From the IMG/VR virus record IMGVR_UViG_3300030104_002039, positions 1 to 51,364 of that record: a stretch of 51,364 nt of DNA. The stretch is one strand, 5' to 3'. The notes under the pieces are model-generated. The model saw only the letters and a list, made by a program, of their open reading frames with translations, was not told the origin of the DNA and did no database searches. The position numbers and the translations under genes are program-made. This document shows, piece after piece, positions 2,658-18,700 of this stretch; the first letter of the stretch is position 1, and every line of letters begins with the position of its first letter. Source of the DNA: a virus. Taxonomy: Duplodnaviria > Caudoviricetes.

Positions 2658-3056
2658 ATGAAAAAACTATTTTTAATGGCAAGTCTTATTTTTGCTACAA
2701 CTTTATGTTCTGCGCAGTTCTTGGCTATAACAACCATAAACACGCCAGAAGATAATGCAGAGTGGGAAATGTCAAACGTCACCGATAACATAGGTGTTGG
2801 CTACATATTTACTGACAAAATAGTAGCTGGACTTGTAAAAAACGGTGAAGAGTACGATCTGTGGGGTAGATACCATTTTAGTAACTGCTACGCAGCTGTA
2901 CAAGCTCCTATGGAAGAAGCAACCGACAACATGATGTTCGGTGTTGGTTATTCTATGAAAGTTTGGAAAGACTTATATGTTGATCCAAGCTATATGATGT
3001 CTACGAAAGAAGACTCAGAGGGAGAGTTTAGGTTAGGAATATCTTATCGATTTTAA
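2658..3056 (+). CDS. Small outer-membrane beta-barrel protein with signal peptide
   Basis: Signal peptide MKKLFLMASLIFATTLCSA|Q, amphipathic beta-strands (NIGVGYIF, MFGVGYSM) and a C-terminal beta-signal FRLGISYRF. Confidence 0.75.
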   Translation: MKKLFLMASLIFATTLCSAQFLAITTINTPEDNAEWEMSNVTDNIGVGYIFTDKIVAGLVKNGEEYDLWGRYHFSNCYAAVQAPMEEATDNMMFGVGYSMKVWKDLYVDPSYMMSTKEDSEGEFRLGISYRF

Positions 3057-3077
3057 TTCAAATATTTATTAAATAAT

Positions 3078-3105
3078 AAAGGGAGCTTTTTAGCTCCCTT
3101 TTTTT
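3078..3105. terminator. Bidirectional intrinsic terminator between the convergent transcription units
   Basis: aaaGGGAGCT-tttt-AGCTCCCttttttt: perfect stem, T-tract on +, A-rich flank giving a T-rich tail on -. Confidence 0.9.
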
Positions 3106-3181
3106 ATAATGCTATCAAAAAGATAGTGATCATTAGTACTAAGTATATAACCGCACTAAGATCTTTGGTTTGTGTTTCCAT
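3104..3181 (-). CDS. Unannotated 25-aa single-TM peptide (METQTKDLSAVIYLVLMITIFLIAL)
   Basis: Translated by hand. ATG at 3181 has an A/T-rich leader; the stop lies within the terminator; the hydrophobic stretch is long enough for a TM helix. Confidence 0.55.
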   Translation of the reverse strand: METQTKDLSAVIYLVLMITIFLIAL

Positions 3182-3237
3182 ATATTTATTTTCACTAATA
3201 AATATAAATATTTAATTATTATAGTGTTAAGTAATTG

Positions 3238-3693
3238 TTAAATTACCATATATTTAGTTCTACCATTTTCTTTATATGCTTTTAAACACTTTTTTCTATT
3301 TTTCTCAGGAGATACATAACTAACATGAACCCAGTTAGGATTATCATCATTTCCAAACTCCCATATCATTTGATCAAAATCTAAATGCTCTTTTATAAAG
3401 TGGTACATTTCGGCATTTGTTGCTTTGCCAAATGTATCGTCAATATCCATTGCTTGACCTTTACAGTGTTGTGAAGTAGTAGATCCACCAATAGCTTTAT
3501 TTAAATCAGCACTTCTAAAAAAACTATTAATTTTTATTGGACCACCAACATATATTCTTAATGGCTCAAATATTTCTTTAGCAAGAGTTTCCATGTTTTT
3601 TAACTGTTCTTCATTAGGTGTATTTTCTATACCTCTTCTCAAAGCCGTTGTGCTATACACGCCCTCCTTGTAACTTATGTGTTTACTTATCAT
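3238..3693 (-). CDS. Endolysin, peptidase M15A (Zn D-Ala-D-Ala peptidase) family
   Basis: NSFFRS..LNKAIGG...SQHCKGQAMD and WVHVS are the M15 zinc-binding motifs. Confidence 0.88.
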   Translation of the reverse strand: MISKHISYKEGVYSTTALRRGIENTPNEEQLKNMETLAKEIFEPLRIYVGGPIKINSFFRSADLNKAIGGSTTSQHCKGQAMDIDDTFGKATNAEMYHFIKEHLDFDQMIWEFGNDDNPNWVHVSYVSPEKNRKKCLKAYKENGRTKYMVI

Positions 3694-3705
3694 TTTATTT
3701 TATTA

Positions 3706-4776
3706 TTAAGGTGTTGAATCTATTTCTCTTGTTGATCCAGCTAAATATGTAGACCAATCATCTTCTATTACTAATGTTAAAAATATCCTCTCATTACTAC
3801 CTGTTATACTTGTATCTGATTGTATTGATATAGCAAACATATCTGTAGAATCCCAATGTTTAGCCGAATCAAAAACAACATGCCATAGATGTTGGTCAGC
3901 TTCGTCATTAATAGTAATAGCTTCTGTTTCTTGAACAGAATAACCACCAGAATACGAACTTCCTACAGTGTTTGTTTCAACTCCAAAAGTAACCGTAGCA
4001 TCACCACTATGAGTGTTGAAGGCTTCCCCTCTGTATGTTACAGAAACTAATCTACCATCACAAACCGCTACTTCTTGCATTTCCTCTCTAGTTAATACAG
4101 TTTGTTCATCTTGTGATTTTAATGGTAAATAATATTTTGTAGTACCTATATTTGCTCTAAAGTTACAATTTACTATTCTATAGTTTTTACCAGATTGAGC
4201 ACCTGTTGTACTACCTGTACCACCATTACCTAAAGCTAAAGTACCAGTTACACCGTGAGTGTTTGCAGCACTTCCATCAAAGTTAGTGGAAGATGTACTA
4301 GCAAGATCAGTTTGAAAAGCTCTTGTAGTTGTAAGTGTGGCAGCGGATCCAGTTGTATTTTGATTTAACGTAGGTATATTGCTAGCATGTATTGTAGCTG
4401 TACTACTTACATCATTATCCCATCTTAAATGTTCGTTTGCTACAAAATTTAACAATGAATCATGATCTATTTCTCCAGGAACAGATGTAACGGTTATAGC
4501 TTGACCAGAGTTAGTCACACCCACACCACTAGTTCCTAATAAACCAAATGACGCTGATCCAGAATCAACTTGTGCTGGGCTACCAGCACCAGTATCAGTT
4601 GTAAATTTTATAGCGGTAATATCGCCAGAAGCTTCTGTGGCTTTTACTATTTTGTTATTAGAATCTAAACCTAAATTACCACCACTAGCTATAGTACCAG
4701 TAGATATACTTTCTAAATATACATCATTACGAAATCTAGATATTTGATCCCAAATATTTTGCCCGATCCATTTCAT
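3706..4776 (-). CDS. Putative tail fibre/virion structural protein
   Basis: T/S/G-rich with fibre-like segments (IPTLNQNTTGSAATLTT, GTLALGNGGTG) and a beta-rich C-terminal domain. Confidence 0.6.
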   Translation of the reverse strand: MKWIGQNIWDQISRFRNDVYLESISTGTIASGGNLGLDSNNKIVKATEASGDITAIKFTTDTGAGSPAQVDSGSASFGLLGTSGVGVTNSGQAITVTSVPGEIDHDSLLNFVANEHLRWDNDVSSTATIHASNIPTLNQNTTGSAATLTTTRAFQTDLASTSSTNFDGSAANTHGVTGTLALGNGGTGSTTGAQSGKNYRIVNCNFRANIGTTKYYLPLKSQDEQTVLTREEMQEVAVCDGRLVSVTYRGEAFNTHSGDATVTFGVETNTVGSSYSGGYSVQETEAITINDEADQHLWHVVFDSAKHWDSTDMFAISIQSDTSITGSNERIFLTLVIEDDWSTYLAGSTREIDSTP

Positions 4777-4777
4777 A

Positions 4778-5293
4778 TTAAGTTATTATTACGTCTACTA
4801 AAGCAGTTGGATTACAATCTGGAGATGTATCGTTTGCTAAATCACTACCAAAAGCTGCTGTTACCGTAGCCGTTGTATCACCTGTGATTGTTGCTATTGT
4901 TCTGGTTTCTCCAGATACAACTATTTCGTCTCCTACAGAAAGTTCAGAAGTATATAAGGTACTAGTACCAGGAACATTTATGTTAGTGCCCGTTACATCT
5001 ATAGATCCTGTTAAAGTAAAAGATGCACCGTCTGTTAGCTTTATATACAAGCCGTATTCTTTAGACGCACTATTAATACTTATATCATCAAAAACTAAAG
5101 TAGCGCCTATAGGTAGTTCTACTTGTTTTAAAAAATAAAACTTTCCTTTAAGCTTTTTTTCAATATACAAGTCTACCTTGCATTTGCTAACTTTTTGAAT
5201 ATTAGTTAAACAAACTTTAGATATACTTAGATTATCGCCAGGAGCTATTAACTCTTGAGTAAGTTCACCAGATATATTGAAATGGTTAGCCAT
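4778..5293 (-). CDS. Putative structural/decoration protein with an inserted fibre-type beta domain
   Basis: The segment GSIDVTGT...GTSTLYTSELSVGDEI...TATVTAAF is typical of fibre domains; structural gene context. Confidence 0.5.
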   Translation of the reverse strand: MANHFNISGELTQELIAPGDNLSISKVCLTNIQKVSKCKVDLYIEKKLKGKFYFLKQVELPIGATLVFDDISINSASKEYGLYIKLTDGASFTLTGSIDVTGTNINVPGTSTLYTSELSVGDEIVVSGETRTIATITGDTTATVTAAFGSDLANDTSPDCNPTALVDVIIT

Positions 5294-5296
5294 TTT

Positions 5297-5722
5297 TTAT
5301 TCGTAAAAACAAGTATACTCTAAAGTAGTTTCAGTAGTGTCCGAAGCTGTAAATTCAATATCTTTTCCGTCCGCTGCACACCAAGGAATAAACATCCAGT
5401 CTCCACCGTATAATCTACCTATTTCTACTGCTGCTAATAAAATATTTACAAATTTAGTACCGTCACCCCTGTCATTCATATTTTTAATATAAACTTTAGC
5501 TGATTTATCTGCAGTTACATCTGCCGCTATACCAGAAGTTAATCCACCATCTAATAAAACTATATTAGAATCTGATGCTACTTTTTTTCTACCAAGACCA
5601 GTAGTTTCTGAAATACCAGTGTCAGTACCTGCTGTGTAAAGTGTACTAGTGTTAGATACTGAAATAGCGTTATCAGCTATATCAGAACTTGCAATTGTTA
5701 TTGTTGCTGTTGTTGTTGCCAT
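5297..5722 (-). CDS. Putative structural protein, paralog B
   Basis: MATTTATITIASSD...EIGRLYGGDWMFIPW; clear paralog of 5749-6186. Confidence 0.6.
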   Translation of the reverse strand: MATTTATITIASSDIADNAISVSNTSTLYTAGTDTGISETTGLGRKKVASDSNIVLLDGGLTSGIAADVTADKSAKVYIKNMNDRGDGTKFVNILLAAVEIGRLYGGDWMFIPWCAADGKDIEFTASDTTETTLEYTCFYE

Positions 5723-5748
5723 TTTTATTTATTTTTATTTGTTAATTA

Positions 5749-6186
5749 TTAATCTCCAGCTGTTAGTAAAGTTTCACCACTGTGAAATAACATGTACTCT
5801 ATAGTAGCGTCATGAGTAAAAGCTTGTATTTCTATAGACGAATCTGCTGTTGCGTGCGTTAAATCACAATCCCAAGGCATGAATAACCAATCTCCCGCGT
5901 ATAATCTACCGATTTCTTCACTGTTTATTGATATTTTAACGTAATCTGTTACATCTGTGTTTTTAAGACATATGTATACATAAGATGCGTCTTCTGATAA
6001 TGCGGCGCTTTCTGGTATAAGGTCAAAATTAGTTCCCGTTGGGATTAACGCTCTGTGATAGTTTAATTGTTCTAGTCCAGTAGCCGTTGTGCCATCTTTA
6101 TACAGATTCATAGTAGCTGACAACGACATGTTGTCACTAAGCAAATCCGCACTAGAAAGCGTTATTGTCGCTGTTGTTGTTGCCAT
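5749..6186 (-). CDS. Putative structural protein, paralog A
   Basis: MATTTATITLSSAD...EIGRLYAGDWLFMPW. Confidence 0.6.
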   Translation of the reverse strand: MATTTATITLSSADLLSDNMSLSATMNLYKDGTTATGLEQLNYHRALIPTGTNFDLIPESAALSEDASYVYICLKNTDVTDYVKISINSEEIGRLYAGDWLFMPWDCDLTHATADSSIEIQAFTHDATIEYMLFHSGETLLTAGD

Positions 6187-6190
6187 AATT

Positions 6191-8596
6191 TTACTTTTTA
6201 ATTAATTGTTTTGTTATTGATTTGTTTTTGTAATTTATTTGTAGTATATAAACACCATTGCTAAACTTAGACATATCTAAAGTGTTTGTATTTGTTTTTG
6301 ATATAATTATATTTCCAATTTGATCATATACGTTTATATCAACATTTTTATTTATATTTACTTTGTTTTTAGTAGGATTTGGGTATATAACTAAATGATC
6401 ATCTAAACTTTGTCTTACTGGTATTGCACCAACCCAAGTGCTATCACAGTAATTATATGTTAGTTGACATATTTCATCCCACTCATTTTCACAACAGTAA
6501 TCATCTACTGAAATAACCCAAGCGTAGCATTCGTCATTAAGCCAGTAAGGATTTCCTGCACCAGTAACGCAACCAGCGTCATATAAACAAGATAAAGTAT
6601 CATTAACATTAGCAGTTGACTCGTAGTTATACGCATTTGGATCCATGCAACCCATAACCACTTCGATGCACGAACCGTTATCCGTGTTAGCAAGTGGATC
6701 AAAGTTAAGAGCTGTACTATCCATACACCCATAAACATAAGAAATACAACTAAAGTCCTCCGTGTTTGCTTGTGAGTTATAGTTAAGCATAGAAGGATCC
6801 GTGCAGCCATATATGTAAGGTATACAAGAATTATTATCACTATTTGCTAAGGGGTTATAATTAAACATGGTTGAATCAGTACATCCAAAAACGTAAGGCA
6901 AACATGATTCATCATCAGTATTAGCTGATGCATCAAAGTTAAACATTGTAGGGTCAGTACACCCATATATAAATGGAACACAACTATTATCATCAACATT
7001 TGCATTAGGATTATAGTTAAAAGCAAGTGGCTGCATACAACCATATATAACACCTATACAACCACCATTGTCTAAATTAGCTAAACTATCGTAATTAAAA
7101 GCTAGACTATCAGTACAACCCCATATAGCTTCCATTTGACAATCACCATTATTATAATCAGCTGTAAAACCTTGAGTGTAATATTCTAAATATTGTGGAT
7201 CAGCACAACCTGGATTATAATAGCAACTACCGTTATCAGTGTTTGCTGTATCGTTATAATTATAAGCTATAGAATCCATACAGCCATAAACGTAAGGAGT
7301 ACATACTGTAGGACAGTTAGGTAGCGCTATATATTTATCTGGAAACAACATTATTCTATCACTCCAAGGATTTGTGCCTCCTGAAGCTATAACAATACCT
7401 TCTGGATTTATTAATTTAAAACCTATTTGATCTATAGTAGCATCAGAACTTGTTTGTGAATAAGCTCTAATTGTAACTGGGTGGTTTGATTTTAATTCTA
7501 AATTTATAATTTCAACAAAAGAACTTGTGTTAGTATAAGGACCGTAAGAATTACCTAGTTGATTTATCATAACATAAGCGCCTAACCAACCATCACCACC
7601 ACCATCTATTAACTCAATAGTATAACTACAAGTATCCTCCATAAGTGGAGTGTTAGCAATAGAATTAAAATCAAACATAGTACTATCCATGCAACCTATC
7701 ACTCTAGGTGTAACACATAGAGCTGGGTTCATTTGGTCAGCAGCTGGATTAAACTCTAAATAAGCTGGGTTAGGACAACCAACAACAGGTATCCAACTAC
7801 AATCTTTCATCACAAACAAATCTGAAGTATCGCTATGTCCAAAATTTAAATTATCACCAGGCGTTAAACTATATATAGTATCACCGCACTCATCTGTAAT
7901 CAAAGCATTACCATCAATACCACCAAAACAAGAGCCACATATACCATCTCCATAAGAATCATATATAATAAATTTTATTGTATCGCCTATAGGTACACAT
8001 ATCGTATTGCTATAAAAGTTACCAGGGCCAATGCTATTAAAAAACCCTTGAGGTATATCATGTAAAACACTATCGTTTTGATTTACAATTTTCATAGAGG
8101 TTTCTCCAGAATAAGTATCTGGCGTAAACTCAATTGTTATAGATGTTTTTGTAGTATCAGCACAATCATCTTGTGGCGGTGGTATAGCTAAACAAACATC
8201 CGGTATGTTAGCTAAAGGATCGTAGTTGTCATAAGAAGGATCCATACAGCCTGAAATACAAGTAAATTCATTAGCATAAACTGTGTCAGTAAAACTTCCA
8301 TCACTCATTTCTAAAACTATCCAAAAACCAGCTGAACTAGCAAACGGATCACCAGGACTATAGTTGTTATAAAAAGAATAATTAGTTAAATTTTGGTCAT
8401 ACCAGTTCCAAGAGTACGTGTTATAAGGTGTTCCTCTATGAATATTATTTATTGTACAACCACTGTCTAAAGGTTGCCACTCTACCCATGTTCTAGCATA
8501 ACCATACATACATGTATCAGTAGATACTAATGTGGGCGCACAGTTTTGTGCAAAACTAAATATTGGTAATAATAATAATAATAATAATTTTTTCAT
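6191..8596 (-). CDS. Secreted Cys-rich repeat protein with a T9SS type A C-terminal sorting domain
   Basis: Signal peptide MKKLLLLLLLPIFSFA|Q; about 12 GC[MT]DxxAxN[YF]xxxAN repeats; C-terminus IYPNPT...VYDQIG...SNGVYILQI...TKQLIKK is a canonical Por/T9SS CTD. Confidence 0.88.
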   Translation of the reverse strand: MKKLLLLLLLPIFSFAQNCAPTLVSTDTCMYGYARTWVEWQPLDSGCTINNIHRGTPYNTYSWNWYDQNLTNYSFYNNYSPGDPFASSAGFWIVLEMSDGSFTDTVYANEFTCISGCMDPSYDNYDPLANIPDVCLAIPPPQDDCADTTKTSITIEFTPDTYSGETSMKIVNQNDSVLHDIPQGFFNSIGPGNFYSNTICVPIGDTIKFIIYDSYGDGICGSCFGGIDGNALITDECGDTIYSLTPGDNLNFGHSDTSDLFVMKDCSWIPVVGCPNPAYLEFNPAADQMNPALCVTPRVIGCMDSTMFDFNSIANTPLMEDTCSYTIELIDGGGDGWLGAYVMINQLGNSYGPYTNTSSFVEIINLELKSNHPVTIRAYSQTSSDATIDQIGFKLINPEGIVIASGGTNPWSDRIMLFPDKYIALPNCPTVCTPYVYGCMDSIAYNYNDTANTDNGSCYYNPGCADPQYLEYYTQGFTADYNNGDCQMEAIWGCTDSLAFNYDSLANLDNGGCIGVIYGCMQPLAFNYNPNANVDDNSCVPFIYGCTDPTMFNFDASANTDDESCLPYVFGCTDSTMFNYNPLANSDNNSCIPYIYGCTDPSMLNYNSQANTEDFSCISYVYGCMDSTALNFDPLANTDNGSCIEVVMGCMDPNAYNYESTANVNDTLSCLYDAGCVTGAGNPYWLNDECYAWVISVDDYCCENEWDEICQLTYNYCDSTWVGAIPVRQSLDDHLVIYPNPTKNKVNINKNVDINVYDQIGNIIISKTNTNTLDMSKFSNGVYILQINYKNKSITKQLIKK
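6590..7290 (-). repeat. Tandem array of about nine ~26-aa GC[MT]D...AN...C repeats in the T9SS cargo gene
   Basis: GCMDSIAYNY, GCADPQYLEY, GCTDSLAFNY, GCMQPLAFNY, GCTDPTMFNF, GCTDSTMFNY, GCTDPSMLNY, GCMDSTALNF, GCMDPNAYNY. Confidence 0.85.
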
Positions 8597-8745
8597 ATTT
8601 CAAATCCAAAGTTTAATATGATACATCTATGATCTATACCGGGGTTGCAGTACAACTCTAATATTGTAAACCTACCAATTCTAATAGATATATCATATAC
8701 ATTATCTTTTTTATTTCCTTTTTTCCAACTGTTTATCCAATTCAT
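8593..8745 (-). CDS. Unannotated 50-aa protein (MNWINSWKKGNKKDNVYDISIRIGRFTILELYCNPGIDHRCIILNFGFEI)
   Basis: Fills the gap exactly: starts just after the nuclease stop, and its TGA overlaps the next ATG (ATGA coupling). Confidence 0.75.
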   Translation of the reverse strand: MNWINSWKKGNKKDNVYDISIRIGRFTILELYCNPGIDHRCIILNFGFEI

Positions 8746-8747
8746 AA

Positions 8748-9116
8748 TTATCTTTTTCCGCCGTGATATTCTACGGCATGTCCTTCTTTAATTAATAATT
8801 CATTTATGCTTTCTAAAGTCATTTTTTCTTTACCGTCAACTATATCTACAAATAACTCCCCTAAACATCTACCATATTTTCCAACACCATGAGATTGTAA
8901 TGTTATTTCTTTTGATCCTTCTAGTAATTGCTTAACTCTATCTTTAGCTGCTAAACCTTTAGCTTTTTCTTCTAAGTCTCTTGTTCTTGATTCTGGAGTA
9001 TTAATACCTAAAAACCTTATTCTTTTTTTAGTAGATATATCAAAGCCTAAATCTATATGAGCATCAATAGTGTCACCATCAATAACTCTGTCTAATTTTA
9101 TTTTATAAGTATACAT
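8748..9116 (-). CDS. Thermonuclease (staphylococcal nuclease-like) family protein
   Basis: RVIDGDTID...RIRFLGINTPE...GKYGRCLG. The start is most likely 9116 (TAATG overlap), not 9131. Confidence 0.9.
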   Translation of the reverse strand: MYTYKIKLDRVIDGDTIDAHIDLGFDISTKKRIRFLGINTPESRTRDLEEKAKGLAAKDRVKQLLEGSKEITLQSHGVGKYGRCLGELFVDIVDGKEKMTLESINELLIKEGHAVEYHGGKR

Positions 9117-9319
9117 TATTTTGGTATGCAATTAGGAACTGTTCTTCCGTTTTTCTTTTTATAACCAGCTTGCTTATGCGTTTTCCAACATTTCATTGGT
9201 GACTTCATTTTAAATGGGCCTAATTTTCCTAACATAGATTTAACTGTTTTAGCTTGTCCAGCGTGCATTTTACTAGCTTTTTCTAATTCTTCAGCTACTT
9301 TTTTTAATTTATTTTTCAC
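9116..9319 (-). CDS. Small basic protein with a CWK...VPNC[IV]P motif
   Basis: CWKTHKQAGYKKKNGRTVPNCIPK is a motif recurrent in marine phage small proteins; the ORF overlaps both neighbours. Confidence 0.7.
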   Translation of the reverse strand: MKNKLKKVAEELEKASKMHAGQAKTVKSMLGKLGPFKMKSPMKCWKTHKQAGYKKKNGRTVPNCIPK

Positions 9320-9593
9320 CGCATTTCTTTTTAGGATTATTAACTTGTCTCCAGTCTTCTTTTTGAAACCAATCTCTTAATGTAGCACCTTTTTTACGAG
9401 CGCTTTTTACGTTTGTTTTTGAAGAACGTTTATACTTACCAGCTTTGCCAGATTTTTGTTTAGCACTAACTAAACGTTGCTTTTCTTTTTTACTCATGCT
9501 GGCAATTTTAGCGGCAGGCAAACATGTTTTACGTGTGCCTCCGCCTTTTTGCTTTTTCTTTTTTTTTAAAGGATTGTTCTCCTGAACGTACAT
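9309..9593 (-). CDS. Small basic protein (LRDWFQKEDW motif; DUF5872-like)
   Basis: Lys-rich, with CLPAAK...MSKKEK and TLRDWFQKEDW...KCG. Family name is from recall and unverified. Confidence 0.65.
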   Translation of the reverse strand: MYVQENNPLKKKKKQKGGGTRKTCLPAAKIASMSKKEKQRLVSAKQKSGKAGKYKRSSKTNVKSARKKGATLRDWFQKEDWRQVNNPKKKCGEK

Positions 9594-9595
9594 TA

Positions 9596-9862
9596 CTACT
9601 TCTTTTTCATTTTCATTTTCATAGCTGTAGCTTTTTTCATCATTACGGCTGACTTTTTAAGCATCATAGCTGATTCTTTTTTTAACTTCATTGCAGCTTT
9701 TTTCATTTTAGCCGGAGAATCTAGTATTTTCTTTTTTAAAGCGTCAGGTAAGTTTTTTTGTTTACCAACTAATGCTTTTTTCATTGGAGCTTTTTTCATT
9801 TTAGCAGGAGCTTTTTTCATTTTCATTGCTGCTTTTTTCATTTTTGCGGGTGCTTTTTTCAT
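9596..9862 (-). CDS. Lys/Met/Ala low-complexity, histone H1-like basic protein
   Basis: Repeats MKKAPAK / MKKAAMK; the DNA shows repeated GCTTTTTTCAT units. Confidence 0.75.
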   Translation of the reverse strand: MKKAPAKMKKAAMKMKKAPAKMKKAPMKKALVGKQKNLPDALKKKILDSPAKMKKAAMKLKKESAMMLKKSAVMMKKATAMKMKMKKK

Positions 9863-9863
9863 T

Positions 9864-10391
9864 TTAAATTTTGTTTTTAATATGTTTATACATTTGTTTT
9901 CCTAATTCTGTTCCGTTTTTACTATCGCTTTTATAATGAGCATGTGCTACATTTCTACTGTCAGATATATTTTTAGCTGTTTGCATAAACGCAGAGCTCT
10001 TGCCGTACTTATCTTTTAATACCGATGCTATAAGTATACCTTGTGCAGAATGACCAGATGGATATGACGGAGTGTTCATTGAATCCATTTTAACTGAGCT
10101 TAAGTTTTTATCTAGCTCATACGGTCTTGGTCTATTATGGTATTTCTTTAGTTTTAATATTACAGGTGCAGACTCTTTTATAAGTTTAGAAGCAATATTT
10201 TTGTCATAATCTTTTATACCTTGCTCTTTAGCTGTTTTTTTAAACGCAGCTTCTATATTGTCGTATTTCTTAACAAAACTTTTATTTAGTTTTATTTTTT
10301 TTAAAGTTTTAATTTCTTGAGCAGTGTCAAAGCCACTATCACTAGGTGGTTTCATTTTCTTGAAACTTGATATATCAAAATCTTTAAACAT
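9864..10391 (-). CDS. PAP2 superfamily phosphatase (soluble)
   Basis: All three PAP2 motifs: KKYHNRPRP, PSYPSGHS, SRNVAHAHYKSD; no TM segments. Confidence 0.88.
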   Translation of the reverse strand: MFKDFDISSFKKMKPPSDSGFDTAQEIKTLKKIKLNKSFVKKYDNIEAAFKKTAKEQGIKDYDKNIASKLIKESAPVILKLKKYHNRPRPYELDKNLSSVKMDSMNTPSYPSGHSAQGILIASVLKDKYGKSSAFMQTAKNISDSRNVAHAHYKSDSKNGTELGKQMYKHIKNKI

Positions 10392-10612
10392 TATTTCTTT
10401 TTAAAATCACCTCTAGTACAACGTACGCCCCAGCCAGAAGCATAAGCACTAGGCCATACTTTAAATTTCTTTTTTGCTTGAGCTTTACAACTAGCAGATA
10501 TTTTAGCTAATGCTGGACTTATTTTTTTAAGCATCTTATTTGGATTACCTTTACCTCCATCAGCTTTACTAGCATGTACAGCTTTTCTTTGTGCATCACT
10601 TACGTATCCCAT
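10391..10612 (-). CDS. Small basic protein (YVSDAQRKAVHA and KKKFKVWPSAYASG motifs)
   Basis: Lys-rich, with two short motifs recurrent in marine phages; TAATG overlap with the PAP2 gene. Confidence 0.7.
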   Translation of the reverse strand: MGYVSDAQRKAVHASKADGGKGNPNKMLKKISPALAKISASCKAQAKKKFKVWPSAYASGWGVRCTRGDFKKK

Positions 10613-10623
10613 AATTATTTATT

Positions 10624-10998
10624 TTAACATTTCCAGCGTCTACGCGCTGCTTTACCTCTTTCTCCAGTCCAACCTTTTGATCTAGCACAGAAAGACTTTC
10701 TTCTTTTTGCGGCTTTACTACCTGGTTTAACTTTTCCCGTTACAGCTGTTTTAAGCTTACTTCCAGGGTTTTTACGTCTATAAGTTTCAACTCCCTTAGA
10801 AGTCATCCCAGCACCCTCTTCTACTGTTCTAAAGTTACGACCTTTTCCTTTTGTAGTTTTTCTAGGTTCATTGCTTTTTTGTAATGGTGAACCATCATTT
10901 CTTCTTCGGCCACAACTAGTAACAGCAAAAGGGTTACCTTCTTGAACGTATCCTTTAGTTTTTTTAAACATACTGTTTTGTTTTTTGCTTCCAGGCAT
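10624..10998 (-). CDS. Small basic protein (DUF6321-like)
   Basis: GMTSKGVETYRRKNPGSKLKTAVTG...RRKSFCARS...RRRWKC. Family name is from recall and unverified. Confidence 0.7.
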   Translation of the reverse strand: MPGSKKQNSMFKKTKGYVQEGNPFAVTSCGRRRNDGSPLQKSNEPRKTTKGKGRNFRTVEEGAGMTSKGVETYRRKNPGSKLKTAVTGKVKPGSKAAKRRKSFCARSKGWTGERGKAARRRWKC

Positions 10999-11000
10999 AA

Positions 11001-11336
11001 TTAAAAGTCACTCATTAGTTGATTACTTATTTCTTCTTGCACTTCTTCTTTTGTTGCTGCCATTTTAAAACTAAGATCAGCTTGAAACCTAGCAACCTCT
11101 TCTCCATCTTTAAATATTATAATAGTAGGTACTACAGCTATTTTATGTTTACTTGCGCTAGCAGCATCTGAAGCTATATCCGTGTAGCCTATAGTTTTAC
11201 AATCTTTTAAGCTCATCACCCAATTAACATCATTAGCTTTATTCCAACCAGCGTTAAATTGTACTACTTTTATTTGGCCAAAAGTAATATTAGCTAGCAA
11301 TGTAAATAATACCCAAGTAACGTAAAATTTTTTCAT
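11001..11336 (-). CDS. Exported thioredoxin-fold protein lacking CxxC
   Basis: Signal peptide ending TFG|Q; VVQFNAGWN stands where FxAxWCxxC is expected; cis-Pro motif VVPTIIIFKDGEEVARF. Confidence 0.8.
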   Translation of the reverse strand: MKKFYVTWVLFTLLANITFGQIKVVQFNAGWNKANDVNWVMSLKDCKTIGYTDIASDAASASKHKIAVVPTIIIFKDGEEVARFQADLSFKMAATKEEVQEEISNQLMSDF

Positions 11337-11340
11337 TTAA

Positions 11341-11652
11341 TTATCTATTATATAATTTGTCTTCTATTTTTTCTAATGTTTTTTTTATTTCAGTAACATC
11401 TTCTTGTGTGGTCATAATAGTGTTACGTATCATTTCATCTTTCATTTGAAACTCCATACGTGTAACTTCATCTGGTGGTAGTTTTTCTATCCACTCAGGG
11501 TTCCACTCGTTAGCAGGTAGTTCTTTTGCTTCAGCTATATCTGACTGTAATGTAAACCACATACCAGCTAATGTAGCTATAGCAAAACCTATACCTATTA
11601 ATGTTTTTATACTTAATTTAAAGCTAGTATCTTCGTTTAATTCTTTTGCCAT
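11341..11652 (-). CDS. Single-pass membrane protein with a C-terminal coiled coil
   Basis: TM segment IKTLIGIGFAIATLAGMWF; heptad pattern in VTEIKKTLEKIEDKL. Confidence 0.75.
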   Translation of the reverse strand: MAKELNEDTSFKLSIKTLIGIGFAIATLAGMWFTLQSDIAEAKELPANEWNPEWIEKLPPDEVTRMEFQMKDEMIRNTIMTTQEDVTEIKKTLEKIEDKLYNR

Positions 11653-11653
11653 A

Positions 11654-12754
11654 TTAAAAAATTGTGTAATTTAATCCTAATTTAAAATCGTACCACTCTC
11701 TATTCCAGTACTTATTATATTTACCTTCTACAAAATAACCTAGCTGTTTGTTTACTTTTATGCCGTATATTAAACCACCTGAATAATCATACCATTGCCC
11801 ATCAACGTAGTTGTGATATGAAAACTCACTACCATCATCATAGTGATATGGCATTAAACTACCCCAAGCATGTAACCATGTGTTTTTAGAATATTTATAA
11901 TAATCAAAACCAACAACTAAAGAATGTTGTATTGTTTTCTTTAATTCATTTCTTTTTTTTTGTGTGTAATCCGATAACACTTCTGGAACAACTACAGCCT
12001 CCCAAACCTCGGCACTAGTAGCAACTAGTTCTCCAGCTGGATTGTAATACTCGCTGCTATACACATCTACCGTGTAACCTTCTTGTAATGCTAAATAAGT
12101 ATAGTGAATATTACCGTTGTCAAGCATCCACTCATCTAAAGCATTGTAACCATATGGTTCTGCAAGTCTATGTGTTAAGCCAATATTCCAAGACAAGTTA
12201 GCGTTTTTACGATGTCTATATCTTTCTGATGCTTCAAAATATTTAATATCAGCAAAACCATCTTCAAGATACTCTAGTTTTAAAGCAAAAAAGTTTACAC
12301 ATAACTCATCAGGACAACCATCATCGGAGCTAAACCTAACAAAATGATGTTGATCCATATAATCAACACCTTCTTGTCTTTTGTAATCAACTTCAAATAA
12401 ATATTCAACTCCTCTAACTTTACCTACAGTGGCCGCATCACTATAGTTAGACTCCGTTCCGTCATAAAAAGTTTGAGCTTTATTTTCATATCCAAATCTT
12501 GCTATCTTACGTAAACCTATGGTAAAATTATAATCATAAGGAGTTGAAACAGTTTGTGTAGATAAACCATTGTCTACTGAAAATACATCAACGTCAGACA
12601 ATGATGTACCGCCATTAACGGCTGCATAAAAAGTAGAATACTTTAACATATCTTTAAAGTCTTCTATGCCAAGCTTTTGAGCGCAACATTTTTTAGACGT
12701 TGTACACGCTATTAAAACTGTTGTTAATATTATTATTATTAGTTTTTTCACCAT
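11654..12754 (-). CDS. Predicted outer-membrane beta-barrel protein
   Basis: N-terminal signal (LIAC lipobox-like, or CCA|Q), many amphipathic strands, C-terminal FKLGLNYTIF beta-signal. Confidence 0.75.
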   Translation of the reverse strand: MVKKLIIIILTTVLIACTTSKKCCAQKLGIEDFKDMLKYSTFYAAVNGGTSLSDVDVFSVDNGLSTQTVSTPYDYNFTIGLRKIARFGYENKAQTFYDGTESNYSDAATVGKVRGVEYLFEVDYKRQEGVDYMDQHHFVRFSSDDGCPDELCVNFFALKLEYLEDGFADIKYFEASERYRHRKNANLSWNIGLTHRLAEPYGYNALDEWMLDNGNIHYTYLALQEGYTVDVYSSEYYNPAGELVATSAEVWEAVVVPEVLSDYTQKKRNELKKTIQHSLVVGFDYYKYSKNTWLHAWGSLMPYHYDDGSEFSYHNYVDGQWYDYSGGLIYGIKVNKQLGYFVEGKYNKYWNREWYDFKLGLNYTIF

Positions 12755-12759
12755 TTTTA

Positions 12760-12778
12760 TATAGTCACTTATTTTTTT
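12760..12778 (-). promoter_or_regulatory. Candidate phage late promoter (A-tract + GTGACTATA)
   Basis: The minus strand reads AAAAAAATAAGTGACTATA just before ATG 12754; a similar motif lies at 25871-25886. Confidence 0.45.
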
Positions 12779-12787
12779 AATTCTTTA

Positions 12788-15700
12788 CTATCTTTGTATA
12801 ATAACTCTCTTTTTTTTGCTATCCTTTTTAGATTGTTTTTCTTTGTCTTTTTTCTTGTTTTCTTTTTCTTGCTCTTTTAATTTCTTTTTTCTTCTTTTTA
12901 TTTCTTCTTTTGTTTGAAGTAAATCTTGATCTTTAATGCCAAGATCCCAAGTATTCCAACCTAAAAGTAAAGCTATTCTCTGCCAAGTTTCATTATTAGA
13001 ATCCAAAACATTATCTATGTTTAACATTTTGTTAGATATTCTACCAAGAGGCAAATTAGTAACACCTTCTACAACGTTTCCAATAGCGCTCCAAGTTGGG
13101 TTATCTAAAGTAAAACCTCTTTCTTTCATTACTTCTCTATTGTATTTTTCAGTTTGTATAGATGAGTATATTTTTCTAAGCTTAGAGCCAATTGGTGGTG
13201 AAAAGCCAATAGCTTGTAGCAACGTATATGTTTGGTCAGCATTCCAACCTTTATCTCTTTGCTTTTGATATTCTCTTACAGTATTTTTTGCAGCACCAAT
13301 GGCTTTACCGCCGTAACCTATACCCGCTAACCAAGAATCAACCATTCCATTAATTATTCTTTCTTTCTTTTTGTCATACTCTTCTTCGTCTTCATCTCCA
13401 ATAACAGCAAACAAAGCAGATTGCATAGCGCCAAATATTATACTTTGAATAACGCCGTAGTATATTATTTTAGACATATGCGTTTTGTAATCACCTCTAC
13501 GATTTGTAATATCCCTAGCTGCTTTGTTCATTATTCTAGCATATTGCATTGGTGTGTTTTGAAAAGATAATATTAACCTACCAAGTGGAGAGGCTTGTTG
13601 TTGTGATATCATATCAGGCCTTGCTGATTGCTGTGATACTTCTGTAGCTTCTTGAAAATCTAAAAATGCTTTTAACTCAGCGTCTGCTTTTGACATACCT
13701 TGTTTTACATATGAATTAACTCTATTTCTATAAAAACTAGCACCACCAGAAGCAATAGCAAAACTATCCGCAATTTGCGTAGGTAAAAAACCTTTTTTAA
13801 GTAACCAACGTATTACCGCTTTACTTTGCTCATAAGCACCAACGCCTTTTACAGCTTGTGATAATTCAGCTTCATTTATACCTCTTTTGTTACCAGATCT
13901 TCTTTGTTTTAAGAAGTCAGAATTAAATAGCATTGTAAAATCAGACCAAAATTGTTTTTGATTAGCAAAAGCCATACCTGCTTTAAGTGGGTTGTTGTCG
14001 CTCCAATTAATATAGTTAGTAGCAGATATAGTTTGTAGTATTGCAGATCTCATATTAAAGAACATAATAGCACCAACAGAACCGTTAACCCAATTCATAT
14101 ACTCATTCATTATTCTACTATTACCAGTAGGTCTATTTCTACCGTTTTTCATACGATAGATTACATCTTCTAAAGCTTCTCTAAACTTACTACCGTATAT
14201 TGCCTCTATTTTATTTAAGTTTTCTTTAGAGAATATAACATCTACATTTGCTTGCCACTCTTGTAATACTTCCGCTCTACCAGTATCTACAGATTGTTCG
14301 CTTAATAAATCAGAATTAATATTTTCCACAAACCAATATTCACCAGGTTTTGTATAACCCTCTTTCTTTTTAGATATTAAACTTATAGTTTCAGCAAAAG
14401 ATTGTAATTCAGTGTCATTTTTAATAATACCATCTAAAGTTTCTATATTTTTCTTTGATAAACCTGGTATATCAAAACCTGCTTTATTCCACAAGTAAAC
14501 TCTCACGGCTTGGTCATAAGTAAAATCAGTACCAGTTATTTTCTTTTTTAATTTTTTCTTAATTTTAGGTGATTGTTTGAATAAGTTTTTTAAATCATTA
14601 GCTTTAGCTTGTCTAGAACTATTTAACTCGTCTACACCTCTAGCAAAAGGATCAACTAAAGCTTTCTTGAAAAAAGCTAAATCATTTTCACCTTCTTTAC
14701 CCTTGCCTAAAAAGTTGTATAATAATCCCATGAAATCTTGAGCAGATGCTGGTATTATAGATTTATACTTTGTTTTTCTACCGGCCAACTTAGCTTCAAC
14801 ATTGTCAAACTGTTTTTCAGAATCAATACCTGTTACTCTTTCTAATATATCATTAAAGTTTTTACTCATACCCTTGCTAAACTTAGTTTTAGCTTGCTGA
14901 ACCTTAGACTTAACGTCAAATTGTTCTAACATGTTAGCTACAGCTTGTACATTTTGTAAGGCATCATCAGCAAAATAAAAGTCATTGTAGCCCTCACCAA
15001 CTTTTTCAGCCATCCAAAGAGCTTTAGCCTCAGCGGTAGAGTTAGCTAAACCAGTAATGTTTTTTAAAGGTATGTTTAATCCATTAGCTTTTAAGAAAGT
15101 GTGTATTGCTAAAGCTGATTCTTCTGGTCTAGCTGTTAATACAAACATGTCTTTATTACCAAACTTACTTTGTAGTTTTAAAGCTTTATTAAACAACGGC
15201 GCTGTCTTACCTTTTACTACCTTTGTGAATTCAGAAAAATCAAACTCATACCCTTGTCCTAATAGGTCTTCGTAAGTTCTAGCGTATTCCTCAGCGTTCA
15301 ACTTACCTTTAGTGCCATCTGGCCTTGTAAATCTAATTCTAGACTTAGTAGTAGCTAATGTATCATCAAAATCTAAAACAGTAATTCCTTTTGTTTTGGC
15401 TTTAGGGTTACGAGATTGTTTAGTAGCCATATCCATAGTCATTCCTATTTCAGTAGAATTCAACAGTGATTTATTTATCTTGCTTACGAAAGCGTCCATA
15501 TTAGCTTTGTTAGCTAAGTTAAACGATGATTTAGTGGGAAAGTTTGTCTTAGATTTAGAGTCTATAATAGGTTCTATTCTAATTGTAGTTGCATAAGTAT
15601 TACCTTTTGTTGATCTTGGTTTGGAACCAACGTTCATTCTTGATATTAATTCAAAAGTTCCAGTTATATCACCATTTGTATCTTCACCTAACCTAGGTAT

Positions 15701-18700
15701 ACCAAGTTCGTTTGCTATTCTAACGACCATAGCGTTAACGTTAGGATTGCTACCTAACATGTAATATGCTCCAGCCTCGCCAATATTAATGAAATACTCA
15801 GGTATTGCTTTGTTAGTATAATGATACTCTAAATATGCAGCTGTAACAGATTCACTGTGAATAAACATGTTCTTATGTATCATTAAATCTTTACGTTGAC
15901 TAGCATCTACACCTTTTTTGAAATCCATACCAATAAACCTAGGATCATTCATTGTTTCTAAAATCTTTTTCTTAAGGTTGTTTTGTGCTGTTGTATTTGT
16001 TGGGTTTGGATTTGTAGTTGGTCCCTCCCATTTCCAAGTAACAGAAACCGCTCTTGCTGAATCCATTTTTATTTCAAGACCCATAGAAACACCATTGGTA
16101 GTTGTAAAATGAACATCTGGTATACCTCCCTCTCTAACGTATGGGTTTACTACTACAGTTTTTATACCCTTAACTTTAAGTTTTTTTACTGCATTCTCGG
16201 CTAGTTCAATAAAAAATTGCTCGTATATAGTACTAACTTTTAACTTTTTTCTTCCTTTTAATTTGTTTTTAATAAATTTTACTATAGTTTTATTATCTAC
16301 TCTTTCCATACCTCTGTTAACATAAGCATCAACAGTAACGTCTACTATAAATTTACCACCATACTTGTTAGCATCTTTTTCTGACAAGTTTCTATAATAA
16401 TTAATTTTACCTTGATCGTTAAACTCATTATTGTAGTTCCATAAATCATTTAATACTTTTTGTGCACCACTAAAATCTACATAAACTTTATCACCTACTA
16501 TTTTAATAGATCTATTTTTATATGTTACCTTAATATCTTTTCTTCCTTCACTAAATTTAACATTAGGATCTCTTTGTATTGTTCTCGCTAAATTATCTAA
16601 GTCGTTTTGTAATATTTCAACATTGTTTAGTTCAGCTATCTCTTGTCGTTTTTGAACCACGTCAGGTTCTTGAGCTACTTGTAAAATAGCATCGTATGCC
16701 AAAGCACCAGCTATATTTCTAGCTAAAGTATCTTTTCTAGTTCCACGCTTACCAGATCTTTGACCTGTAACAGGGTTAAACGATGGTATATCAAAATAAG
16801 ATAAAAACTCTGCTTCAGTAGGTATTCTTTTTGTATATAAATTCACAGCTTGGCCTTTACCTATTGTAACTAAAGCGCTTTCAGGTAATAAGTTTTGATT
16901 TACTGCTGCTTCAACATCTTCTATGTTTGTAAGTTTTTTAACAAACTTAGTAAATATTTTTTGATCATCTGGTACGTTTCTTTCTAATTGAACTAAATCA
17001 GAAACAAATAAAGAATTCATTATAGGTACTCTAAACTTTTTTAAATTACTAGTATATTGTTTAGTACCTAATAAGTTTTTAATCTCTTTAAATATATAAC
17101 TATTAGCCTGATCTCTTAGTTTTCTTTGTATGTTTCTTGCTGATGTGCCAGTTTCATATGCTTTTAATAAAGCTTGACGTGCTGCATCTAAAACTTTATT
17201 ATACATTTGATCTCCAGTTTCGATACCAAGTTCTTTTCTAAAATCAGACTCTCTTTGAACTTTGTCTTGCTCTTTTTGAGCTTTTTCTCTAGCTCTTGCA
17301 GCAGGAGATATATCTTTCTCTTCAAACTCTTTCATTCTAGAGTCTTCTTCAGCCGCAACTTGAACTTTTACATCACCTTCTTTTGTTCTATCGTCTACGT
17401 CTTTAGCTCTTTTCTCTTGCTCTGTTTTCTTATATATTTTGTTGTAAACATCACCCGCTCTAAATGTAATTCTACCTTGTAAGTAACCAAATAAACTATC
17501 GTTTTCTTCTGGATTAAAGTTCTTTATATCTTTTGTTAATTCTGACATAACATCACTAACAAAATTAACAGGTACTTTATCCGCTTTATATTTAGCGGCT
17601 ATTAAATTATCTAAATAACCTTTTTCTTTTATTTGTTTTATAATACTGTCTACTTCTGCTTGATAAAGAAACTTACCTACACCTTTTTCTCTAAGATTAT
17701 TACCATCTTGATCTACTTTACCAAGCTTATCAATTTGATTTTTTATGTCAGCTTTTTGTTTAGATGTCATAGATCTTTTAGTAACAAAATCTTCTTCACC
17801 TGTTAAACCTTTTTTCTTTCTAGCTTTAATTCTTCTTTTAGCTAGTTTAGGTGCTTTTGTTTTTCCAGGGCTTTCTTGAAAAGACTTTAAAAAACTACCC
17901 ATATAAACAGCAGCGTCTTTATCTGTTTTTATTTTATAATCTTGAGATAAAACATTTGCCCAACTTTGAGAAAGACCTGTTATACTTTTTAAATCATCTT
18001 TTGATGCGTATCTAGTATCTCCAGCTGGAACCATTTGAAATATCTCTTGAACACTTCTAGTATATTCATCAAAAAACCGCTTAGCAAACTGTTCTTTTGT
18101 TTCTGCCCTTGCTTCTTTTTCTGTGTATTTTTTACCAGTTTTTTCGTTTATTGTTCCTTTTTTCAATATATCATTAACAACATAATCTTCTACGTATTTT
18201 GAAGAGTATTCAGGAGTTCCATCGTTATTTAATCTATAGTTTCCAATATTAGATTGTCTACGTATAGCTTCGTCGTGTATTTTTTTAAAATTATTTTTAA
18301 TATAATTATGTAGCTTTTTATTATAATCAAACAAACCAGCTTCGTCAAAAGCTTTAAAATCTAAAGCATGACTAAACTCGTGAGCTATAGCTGTTGCGGG
18401 TAAAATATTACCAGCCTCTAATTGTTTTCTAGCCGCTGTTTCACTTCTAACTATATAAGTTCCTTTAGCCCCATGATTACCTCTAATAAAAGCATTTGTA
18501 GCACCACTAGCAACACTAACAAACATATCGTTTATATTACGTTTATTTATTTCTTTTGCTTTATCTATTTCAATCTTTTTTTGTTCTTTAGATATATCTC
18601 TTGAGTTTATTTCATCTATATCTCTCTGAAGTGAATCTTCATATGCTTCTTTAATTGCTTTTTTAAGCTCTGTATTGTTTTTTGCTGACTTATAGCTAAT

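Follow-up and report, generated by a model that had tools for sequence, protein, structure and literature searches.

Type A cargo of type IX secretion systems (T9SS) can be either released or anchored. The concept that a phage may encode such cargo is already in print, going by the accessible portions of two metagenomic reports (PMC7468147, PMC6949934). 'Cryophage', a 76-kb Bacteroidetes phage from cryoconite, is described as carrying three variable genes with T9SS type A sorting domains, and its authors propose that the host T9SS is hijacked and that this has a part in competition or in the exclusion of superinfecting phages (Bellas et al. 2020, PMC7468147). Gut phage contigs of crAss-BACON cluster 2 are likewise described as having open reading frames (ORFs) with T9SS sorting domains (de Jonge et al. 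2019, PMC6949934), and the signal-peptide proteins of Porphyromonas gingivalis phages are reported to follow the Q-rule of Bacteroidetes (Matrishin et al. 2023, PMC10367356). No experimental secretion test appears in these three accounts as far as their text is available; for phage T9SS cargo as such, the accessible part of the open-access literature offers the two metagenomic mentions and no experiment, and we found in it no paper on such cargo in marine phages. Here we describe a gene for an 801-aa protein in the IMG/VR virus record IMGVR_UViG_3300030104_002039, a linear contig of 51,364 bp with a completeness rating of 94%, which was analysed as a single whole and is called the window below. 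An original prediction, made from the letters of the window, had taken this gene to be a phage-encoded substrate of the host T9SS, and that reading proved well supported by sequence and fold.

Several features set the gene apart from the described systems. Like Cryophage, it belongs to a set of phage proteins that bear a type A C-terminal domain (CTD) and vary strongly between phage variants; whereas the Cryophage cargoes are given in the available text as an endoglucanase, a GH39 protein and a PA14 protein, the family described here is marine as well as non-enzymatic, is found in an unrelated podophage-like genome and alternates between the CTD and a short tail. With the crAss-BACON contigs it shares the presence of a T9SS sorting domain on ORFs of Bacteroidota-host phages, some of them fused to repeated binding domains, but those contigs, as described, belong to gut crAss-like phages with BACON repeats, and in the available account no function is assigned there either. 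The P. gingivalis phage proteins are similarly fitted to the host Sec/SPI pathway, by their published description, and expose Gln after cleavage; they differ in that a search of the available text of PMC10367356 gave no mention of T9SS or of a C-terminal domain. A type A cargo of Flavobacteriia such as the nuclease NucA (PDB 8glk chain D) resembles the protein in its Sec signal and its C-terminal domain of about 70 aa, which passes TIGR04183 and PF18962 and has the same predicted Ig-like sandwich; unlike NucA-type cargo, the present gene is phage-encoded, its export is predicted from sequence, and its body consists of beta-sandwiches and Cys-rich repeats only, without an enzyme domain. What is new here is the swapping of the tag and the unannotated short tail.

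One line of evidence comes from the C-terminus, for which the original prediction had claimed an intact type A CTD and had proposed a hidden Markov model search with TIGR04183. That model matched residues 737-801 with 40.9 bits against a cut-off of 23 (E 1.5e-10, profile positions 1-72 of 72), and PF18962 matched residues 737-799 with 44.4 bits against a cut-off of 27 (E 2e-11, positions 1-74 of 75), such that both profiles were covered end to end. The type C model NF033708 stayed below threshold (13.5 bits against a cut-off of 40), and no type B model was present among the NCBIfam matches at E<=1, a list from which the HMMER filters drop most weak matches. In the AlphaFold2 model of the whole protein the CTD has predicted local distance difference test (pLDDT) values of 73-90, and in Foldseek it superimposes on 8glk_D, the NucA CTD bound in the Flavobacterium johnsoniae T9SS translocon, with probability 1.00, a target TM score of 0.70, a root mean square deviation of 3.0 over 73 columns and 26% identity. 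A sequence search against solved structures also returns CTDs (7pzj_A, E 0.0025; 8glj_D, E 0.0076). At the other end, the protein begins with MKK, a 12-residue hydrophobic run and SFA followed by Q, which, read by eye, is the predicted Sec signal with Gln at the +1 position; Gln exposed after signal peptidase cleavage is the Bacteroidetes 'Q-rule', as the available part of one source describes it (PMC5837995). It is thus well supported, as judged from these profile and motif matches, that the 801-aa protein has every sequence feature of T9SS type A cargo. TIGR04183 itself is present in 300 of 301 genomes sampled from the order of a Flavobacteriales metagenome-assembled genome (MAG).

Between its two ends the protein is modular. 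The original prediction had counted about 12 Cys/Asp-rich repeats, and there are exactly 12 repeats that start with GC (residues 116, 273, 301, 438, 463, 493, 519, 545, 571, 597, 623 and 649), nine of them in tandem; the protein contains 42 Cys in paired repeat positions, and the nine-repeat array is a probable disulfide-stapled stalk. The DYCCENEWDEIC motif, also named in the prediction, is present at about residues 699-710, and an alignment of 15 homologues shows no variation in its Cys, Trp and Asp columns. A model of residues 140-435, computed from a 59-sequence alignment of diverse homologues, reached a mean pLDDT of 83.5 and contains two all-beta sandwich domains with a Cys-rich linker between them (limits in Table 1), in agreement with the two beta-sandwich-like domains that had been proposed. 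In Foldseek this model retrieved generic sandwiches only (TM at most 0.19). The best match of an exhaustive fold search had Z 6.0 (1olp_A), and domain 2 on its own matched best at Z 5.6 to 2xhh_A, a calcium-dependent carbohydrate-binding module; neither score exceeds the level that the tool rates as common. An Atlas search with residues 140-430 gave unnamed or weakly named clusters only, all below 0.9. Pfam, NCBIfam, PHROG, solved-structure and fold searches detected no enzyme family or fold in the protein; PHROG profiles matched 0 families at E up to 1, and the MAM domain (PF00629) is missing from the window's own protein. Matches of the whole-protein model to SiiE and fibronectin type III arrays had TM scores below 0.3 and were set aside. 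The Cys-rich repeat itself is very widespread: a search at E up to 0.001 matched 9,637 representative proteins, some with dozens of copies, and the repeats of two homologues (L051, L063) show a weak, sub-threshold match to PF25721 (phage T4 Y03C family).

The original prediction had also counted the gene as part of the phage and had raised the possibility of a chimeric assembly, and both matters were followed up. The best 120 database clusters (at 90% identity) each cover at least 82% of the query with 60-100% identity, and a homologue is carried by 70 distinct viral loci, with one tagged gene per locus. Three window genes at 11654-12754, 11341-11652 and 11001-11336 lie on the same strand and at most 6 kb from the homologue in 58, 58 and 59 of the 70 loci, respectively, the first of them (366 aa) being upstream of the homologue in 46 loci and downstream in 12, going by coordinates. 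Two small downstream paralogues recur in 28 of the 70, and an endolysin is found within 6 kb in 28 of 70. Among prokaryotes, searched with one genome per species, only partial or distant relatives were found, most of them in MAGs of Flavobacteriales and Saprospiraceae, and none was a close bacterial homologue; matches spanning residues 147-800 were only 31-37% identical. Against deposited phages, tblastn of the whole protein gave only a repeat match in one single-cell marine virus record, and tblastn of the 82-aa CTD region gave none at E up to 0.1. The gene therefore belongs to the phage, since 70 viral loci carry homologues with conserved neighbours and no close bacterial homologue turned up; by its synteny it is a conserved part of a marine phage lineage. 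In three independent marine metagenome runs, each of a different study, contigs span positions 6200/6214-6505 with 0, 0 and 1 differences, and because these contigs bridge the junction of body and CTD near nt 6388, the tag is not an assembly chimera. In all, 20 public runs of 14 studies contain the stretch or part of it.

By its gene content the window is a near-complete podophage-like phage contig. Nearly all genes lie on the (-) strand, in an order running from about 51,179 to 3,238, and this block encodes the large terminase, the portal, several virion structural proteins, a holin-like protein and an M15 endolysin, whereas a ribonucleotide reductase lies in a short (+) strand block at the left end. 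The G+C content is uniform, near 33%, and that of the cargo gene is the same as the rest; no tRNA gene was found in the 51,364 bp. A search with the terminase matched 87 deposited phage records, 86 of them Flavobacteriaceae phages (68 of Flavobacterium, 15 of Cellulophaga, 2 of Tenacibaculum and 1 of Maribacter, at about 45% identity) and one an uncultured phage, at 64% identity; a virion protein search gave the same host picture. Because every cultured relative of the terminase infects Flavobacteriaceae and the virion protein agrees, the window is, on the evidence of these genes, presumably a phage of Flavobacteriaceae-like hosts. At the DNA level the first 25 kb of the window, which were searched, had no match among deposited phages.

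Members of the family differ greatly in what lies between the signal peptide and the tag. The signal peptide is conserved and the first module after it is variable: a MAM domain occupies the N-terminus in 13 of 64 scanned relatives and other, unnamed modules do so in the rest, while the module at aa 18-115 of the window's protein is restricted to its closest relatives. The scan of these 64 relatives revealed no catalytic domain. A strict pattern of a hydrophobic run followed by Q was present in 51 of the 62 homologues with a complete 5' end; among the other 11, inspected by eye, six show the Q behind a hydrophobic run that is broken by N, Y or H, four are signal-peptide-like (including a possible lipobox) and one has a mis-called start. 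In two homologues (L021, L056) a lipobox-like N-terminus (...SC...) stands in place of the Q-rule signal peptide, which hints at putative lipoprotein variants of the cargo. By the strict pattern, the homologues have 3-17 repeats, with protein lengths of 616-1,133 aa.

The C-terminus, in turn, comes in two main kinds. PF18962 is passed by 12 of 64 scanned viral homologues and by 29 of the best 120 database clusters, and the 176 distinct proteins of the family divide into 40 with a CTD at the end and 136 with a tail of ~40 aa. Tail and CTD share one junction, which follows a conserved W-x-G-P..R linker. When a tree is built from the 260 residues that precede the tag, the type of tag changes on it at least 16 times, against a mean of 34.0 changes (range 29-39) in 200 label shuffles; the tree is built from a repeat-rich, probably recombining region, which makes the swap count a rough one. 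Proteins 88-89% identical over these 260 residues carry different tags. Taken with the shuffled modules and the stalk of variable length, the swapping of tags would fit a host-interaction protein under diversifying pressure, and it amounts to a natural experiment on what a T9SS address requires.

The short tail has the consensus ..L-x-x-I-T-D-L-L-G-R-P..N-x-L-L-F-Y-I-Y-x-D-G-T-V-E-K-K... and escapes the current domain libraries: NCBIfam gave no match at E up to 10 for six phage short-tail proteins, Pfam gave none on the tail in 52 scanned short-tail proteins, and no library model covers the tail in eight bacterial tail proteins. A profile (A2) built from 49 phage short tails nevertheless found it in 131 of the 301 genomes of the Flavobacteriales sample, with up to 12 copies per genome, and in 0 of 201 genomes from the class of a gammaproteobacterial Pseudoalteromonas genome. 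A regular-expression scan of 80 bacterial loci around distant relatives had shown no short tail, which surfaced only by the whole-genome profile search. In the bacterial examples inspected the tail is always at the extreme C-terminus; the ten bacterial tail proteins whose 5' end is complete all begin with a signal peptide that has Gln at +1, and PorV was above the cut-off in all five short-tail genomes checked. The bacterial bearers are otherwise unrelated, and include a multicopper oxidase, an extracellular polyhydroxybutyrate (PHB) depolymerase, aryl-sulfate sulfotransferases and a choice-of-anchor J protein.

Profile alignment connects the tail with the CTD. An hhalign comparison of 63 tails with 47 type A CTDs gave a probability of 89%, a score of 31.4 and P 2.3e-6, whereas controls with a reversed target and eight column-shuffled targets reached at most 1.0%, with scores of 7-12; the match equates the tail with the CTD's beta3-loop-beta4 and its beta6-beta7, while the segment of beta5 is deleted. 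A first comparison, of phage tails (A2) with phage CTDs (A3), had covered the linker and first strand only (78%) and was discarded; the relation emerged only with broader alignments. The accessible text of a recent study describes the CTD as a four-stranded sheet, beta4-beta3-beta6-beta7, together with a three-stranded sheet, beta5-beta2-beta1, places its functionally relevant motifs in the beta3-beta4 loop and at the C-terminus, and reports that CTDs of different species are not interchangeable (Mizgalska et al. 2024, PMC11285876). On this description the tail resembles the four-stranded half of a CTD from which the beta1-beta2-beta5 sheet would have been lost, and it would keep both functional motifs, because the beta3-beta4 loop and the C-terminus lie in that half. 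It is tempting, if still rather doubtful, to regard the tail as an undescribed minimal sorting signal of Flavobacteriales, and to suppose that phages might exchange CTD and mini-tag to match the export machinery of the host. Nothing on the tail motif or on a novel flavobacterial sorting signal was found in the accessible part of the open-access literature. Were this proposal true, predictions of marine flavobacterial secretomes would be missing a class of proteins, since the tail is found on many secreted enzymes and escapes annotation, and the phage lineage would be swapping its tags, at least 16 times, to suit whichever flavobacterium is infected. In Flavobacteriales MAG proteins we also observed a third tail type, in which two D-x-N/D-G-D-G segments form a dockerin-like pair that is closed by a final Cys; the proteins that carry it share the beta-sandwich and repeat modules of the cargo (L072, L074-L077, L079, L081-L083, L090, L101, L103), which suggests that it may be another C-terminal anchoring module in these bacteria.

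How might a protein of this build serve the phage? We consider it probable that it is made for export by the host Sec system and T9SS, and it might then alter the surface of the infected cell. Sec would carry it across the inner membrane of the infected cell, the signal peptide would be cut off before Gln18, the protein would fold in the periplasm with up to 21 disulfides, and its CTD would be passed to the T9SS translocon (SprA/PorV); upon crossing of the outer membrane, the CTD would be removed and the protein would be either anchored at the surface or released. Least certain is what it would do there. N-terminal binding modules, borne on the repeat stalk, could bind a glycan or protein of the surface or the environment and the infected-cell surface would be changed, most plausibly by receptor masking, such that a superinfecting phage would be excluded or progeny spared. 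Phages do encode envelope proteins that block receptors or exclude superinfection, as exemplified by T5 Llp and lambda Lom and Bor. Export signals of the host likewise direct these proteins to its envelope, and by analogy with them an exclusion role is proposed here; they are, however, small lipoproteins or outer-membrane proteins of enterobacterial phages without sequence or architectural similarity to the present protein. The use of host secretion by phage genes to alter the infected-cell surface is a layer of phage-host interaction that has been little studied, and the family, being abundant in marine metagenomes, offers a defined cargo for its study.

Several points weigh against this explanation. 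The receptor-masking or exclusion role is pure inference, the other roles put forward in the original prediction (adhesin display, aggregation, jamming of T9SS or of gliding) are likewise hypothetical, and the putative binding modules are assigned from generic fold matches below the noise level of the tool. The signal peptide of the 801-aa protein was judged by eye, and the AlphaFold2 model of the whole protein has a mean pLDDT of 44 and is poor outside the CTD. The one RNA run contained small pieces only, at 90-95% likeness, not assignable to this phage. Moreover, 136 of the 176 family members have no canonical CTD, for which reason T9SS routing would hold family-wide only if the short tail is itself a T9SS signal. 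The same fact could speak for a Sec-exported protein that acts independently of T9SS in the periplasm or outer membrane, as part of an envelope-remodelling or lysis cassette, with the CTD merely a structural Ig-like domain. The conserved neighbours with a lipobox or signal peptide, one of them with an outer-membrane-barrel-type C-terminus, and the endolysin near many of the homologues would be in keeping with this; yet the CTD matches sorting-domain models over their full length as well as a CTD structure bound to the translocon, and the short tail also tags diverse secreted enzymes of Flavobacteriales, which argues for sorting and not for lysis, and we therefore find this account improbable. 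Somewhat less unlikely is export by Sec and T9SS with a different outcome, in which the protein is released, or is a nutrient-related or particle-binding auxiliary factor to the benefit of the infected cell, and does not mask the surface. Type A cargo may, after all, be released as well as anchored. Relatives of the modules are found in secreted proteins of Flavobacteriales, some of the scanned family members have the MAM domain mentioned above, and the T9SS-tagged genes of Cryophage are, in the available text, glycoside hydrolases and a PA14 protein (PMC7468147). The lack of a catalytic domain in the cargo and in its scanned relatives speaks against such a role, however, as does the position of the gene, which is fixed beside tail-fibre-like and lysis genes and not that of a sporadic insertion.

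The setting of the gene, between structural genes and a tail-fibre-like gene, raises the further question of whether its product is a component of the virion, such as a fibre, receptor-binding or decoration protein, whose signal peptide and CTD are incidental hydrophobic and Ig-like features. Ig-like domains are common on phage particles, and the modular, hypervariable N-terminus is reminiscent of receptor-binding proteins. Against this, nearly every complete homologue has kept an N-terminus of the cleavable signal-peptide type, the paired cysteines require an oxidising compartment, both C-terminal tags are common to bacterial secreted proteins, no PHROG matches and deposited phage genomes hold no homologue except for the repeat-only match, so that a virion role seems very unlikely to us. 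Even less credence can be given to bacterial DNA mis-assembled onto a phage contig or to a recent passenger gene without a role in the phage: the record is indeed a metagenomic assembly, and both CTD and repeat modules belong to bacterial types, but the same neighbourhood recurs in 58-59 of 70 independent viral loci, the G+C content does not deviate from that of the window, independent runs bridge the junction of body and CTD, and the search of one genome per prokaryote species gave no close bacterial homologue.

Table 1. Coordinates of the cargo gene, the parts of its product and adjacent features in the window
Feature	Position	Strand	Remarks and basis
Whole gene	6191..8596	(-)	801 aa + stop; secreted-type modular Cys-rich protein with T9SS type A CTD
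Signal peptide, aa 1-17	8546..8596	(-)	MKK, hydrophobic run, SFA; predicted cleavage before Gln18
N-terminal beta-rich module, aa 18-115	8252..8545	(-)	strands predicted, pLDDT about 55-78
Single Cys-rich linker repeat, aa 116-136	8189..8251	(-)	repeat pattern
Beta-sandwich domain 1, aa 150-257	7826..8149	(-)	AlphaFold2 model; includes DSYGDG motif
Two Cys-rich repeats between the sandwiches, aa 273-321	7634..7780	(-)	repeat pattern, AlphaFold2 model
Beta-sandwich domain 2, aa 322-424	7325..7633	(-)	AlphaFold2 model; includes DGGGDGW motif
Nine Cys/Asp/Asn-rich repeats in tandem, each of about 26 aa, aa 438-670	6587..7285	(-)	repeat pattern
Conserved Cys-rich pre-tag module with DYCCENEWD motif, aa 675-725	6422..6574	(-)	sequence, homologue alignment
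T9SS type A C-terminal sorting domain, aa 737-801	6194..6388	(-)	PF18962 and TIGR04183 above cut-offs, model
Upstream 50-aa ORF	8593..8745	(-)	stop overlaps the cargo start codon (ATGA)
Envelope-directed neighbours (366-, 103- and 111-aa proteins)	11001..12754	(-)	conserved position

The immediate surroundings of the gene are densely packed. The overlapping 50-aa ORF upstream has a tblastn match in 9 of the 70 related loci, and the next gene begins 4 nt past the cargo stop; translational coupling and late timing of the cargo gene, which would go with such an arrangement, are inferred from gene packing only. Directly downstream are two paralogous ORFs of about 140 aa, 5749-6186 (-) and 5297-5722 (-), which both begin with MATTTATIT and have no family match. 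Between the structural block and the cargo gene there is a run of small, very basic Lys-rich ORFs, 9309-9862 (-) and 10391-10998 (-), one with KKAPAKMKK-like repeats and one with DUF6321.

The three conserved neighbours appear to be directed to the envelope. The 366-aa protein starts with a signal of lipoprotein type (...LIAC...), ends like an outer-membrane barrel (...NYTIF), and is 62-93% identical across 58 of the 70 related viral loci. It has no Pfam, NCBIfam or PHROG match, and deposited phages gave no tblastn match either; among named Atlas clusters the nearest, at 0.93, are families of outer-membrane barrels, which serves as a lead only. The 103-aa neighbour is a single-pass membrane protein whose C-terminal half is charged, and the 111-aa one is a signal-peptide protein with a weak, sub-threshold thioredoxin match and without CxxC. 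Together with the cargo gene they may form a candidate envelope-remodelling cassette.

Elsewhere in the window, a sigma-70 promoter scan returned fewer sites than in shuffles, with a model that does not cover Bacteroidota promoters, and the sole strong hairpin-plus-T-run within 3,000-13,000 lies at 3078-3101, between two convergent gene blocks. Two giant ORFs, 12788-22351 (-) and 27895-36456 (-), encode 3,187 and 2,853 aa; the former is without any family match and the latter matches a virion structural PHROG. Finally, a 132-aa protein encoded at 2658-3056 (+) has a signal peptide, a C-terminus ending in ...YRF and weak, sub-threshold matches to outer-membrane beta-barrel models, and it may be a second phage-encoded outer-membrane protein.

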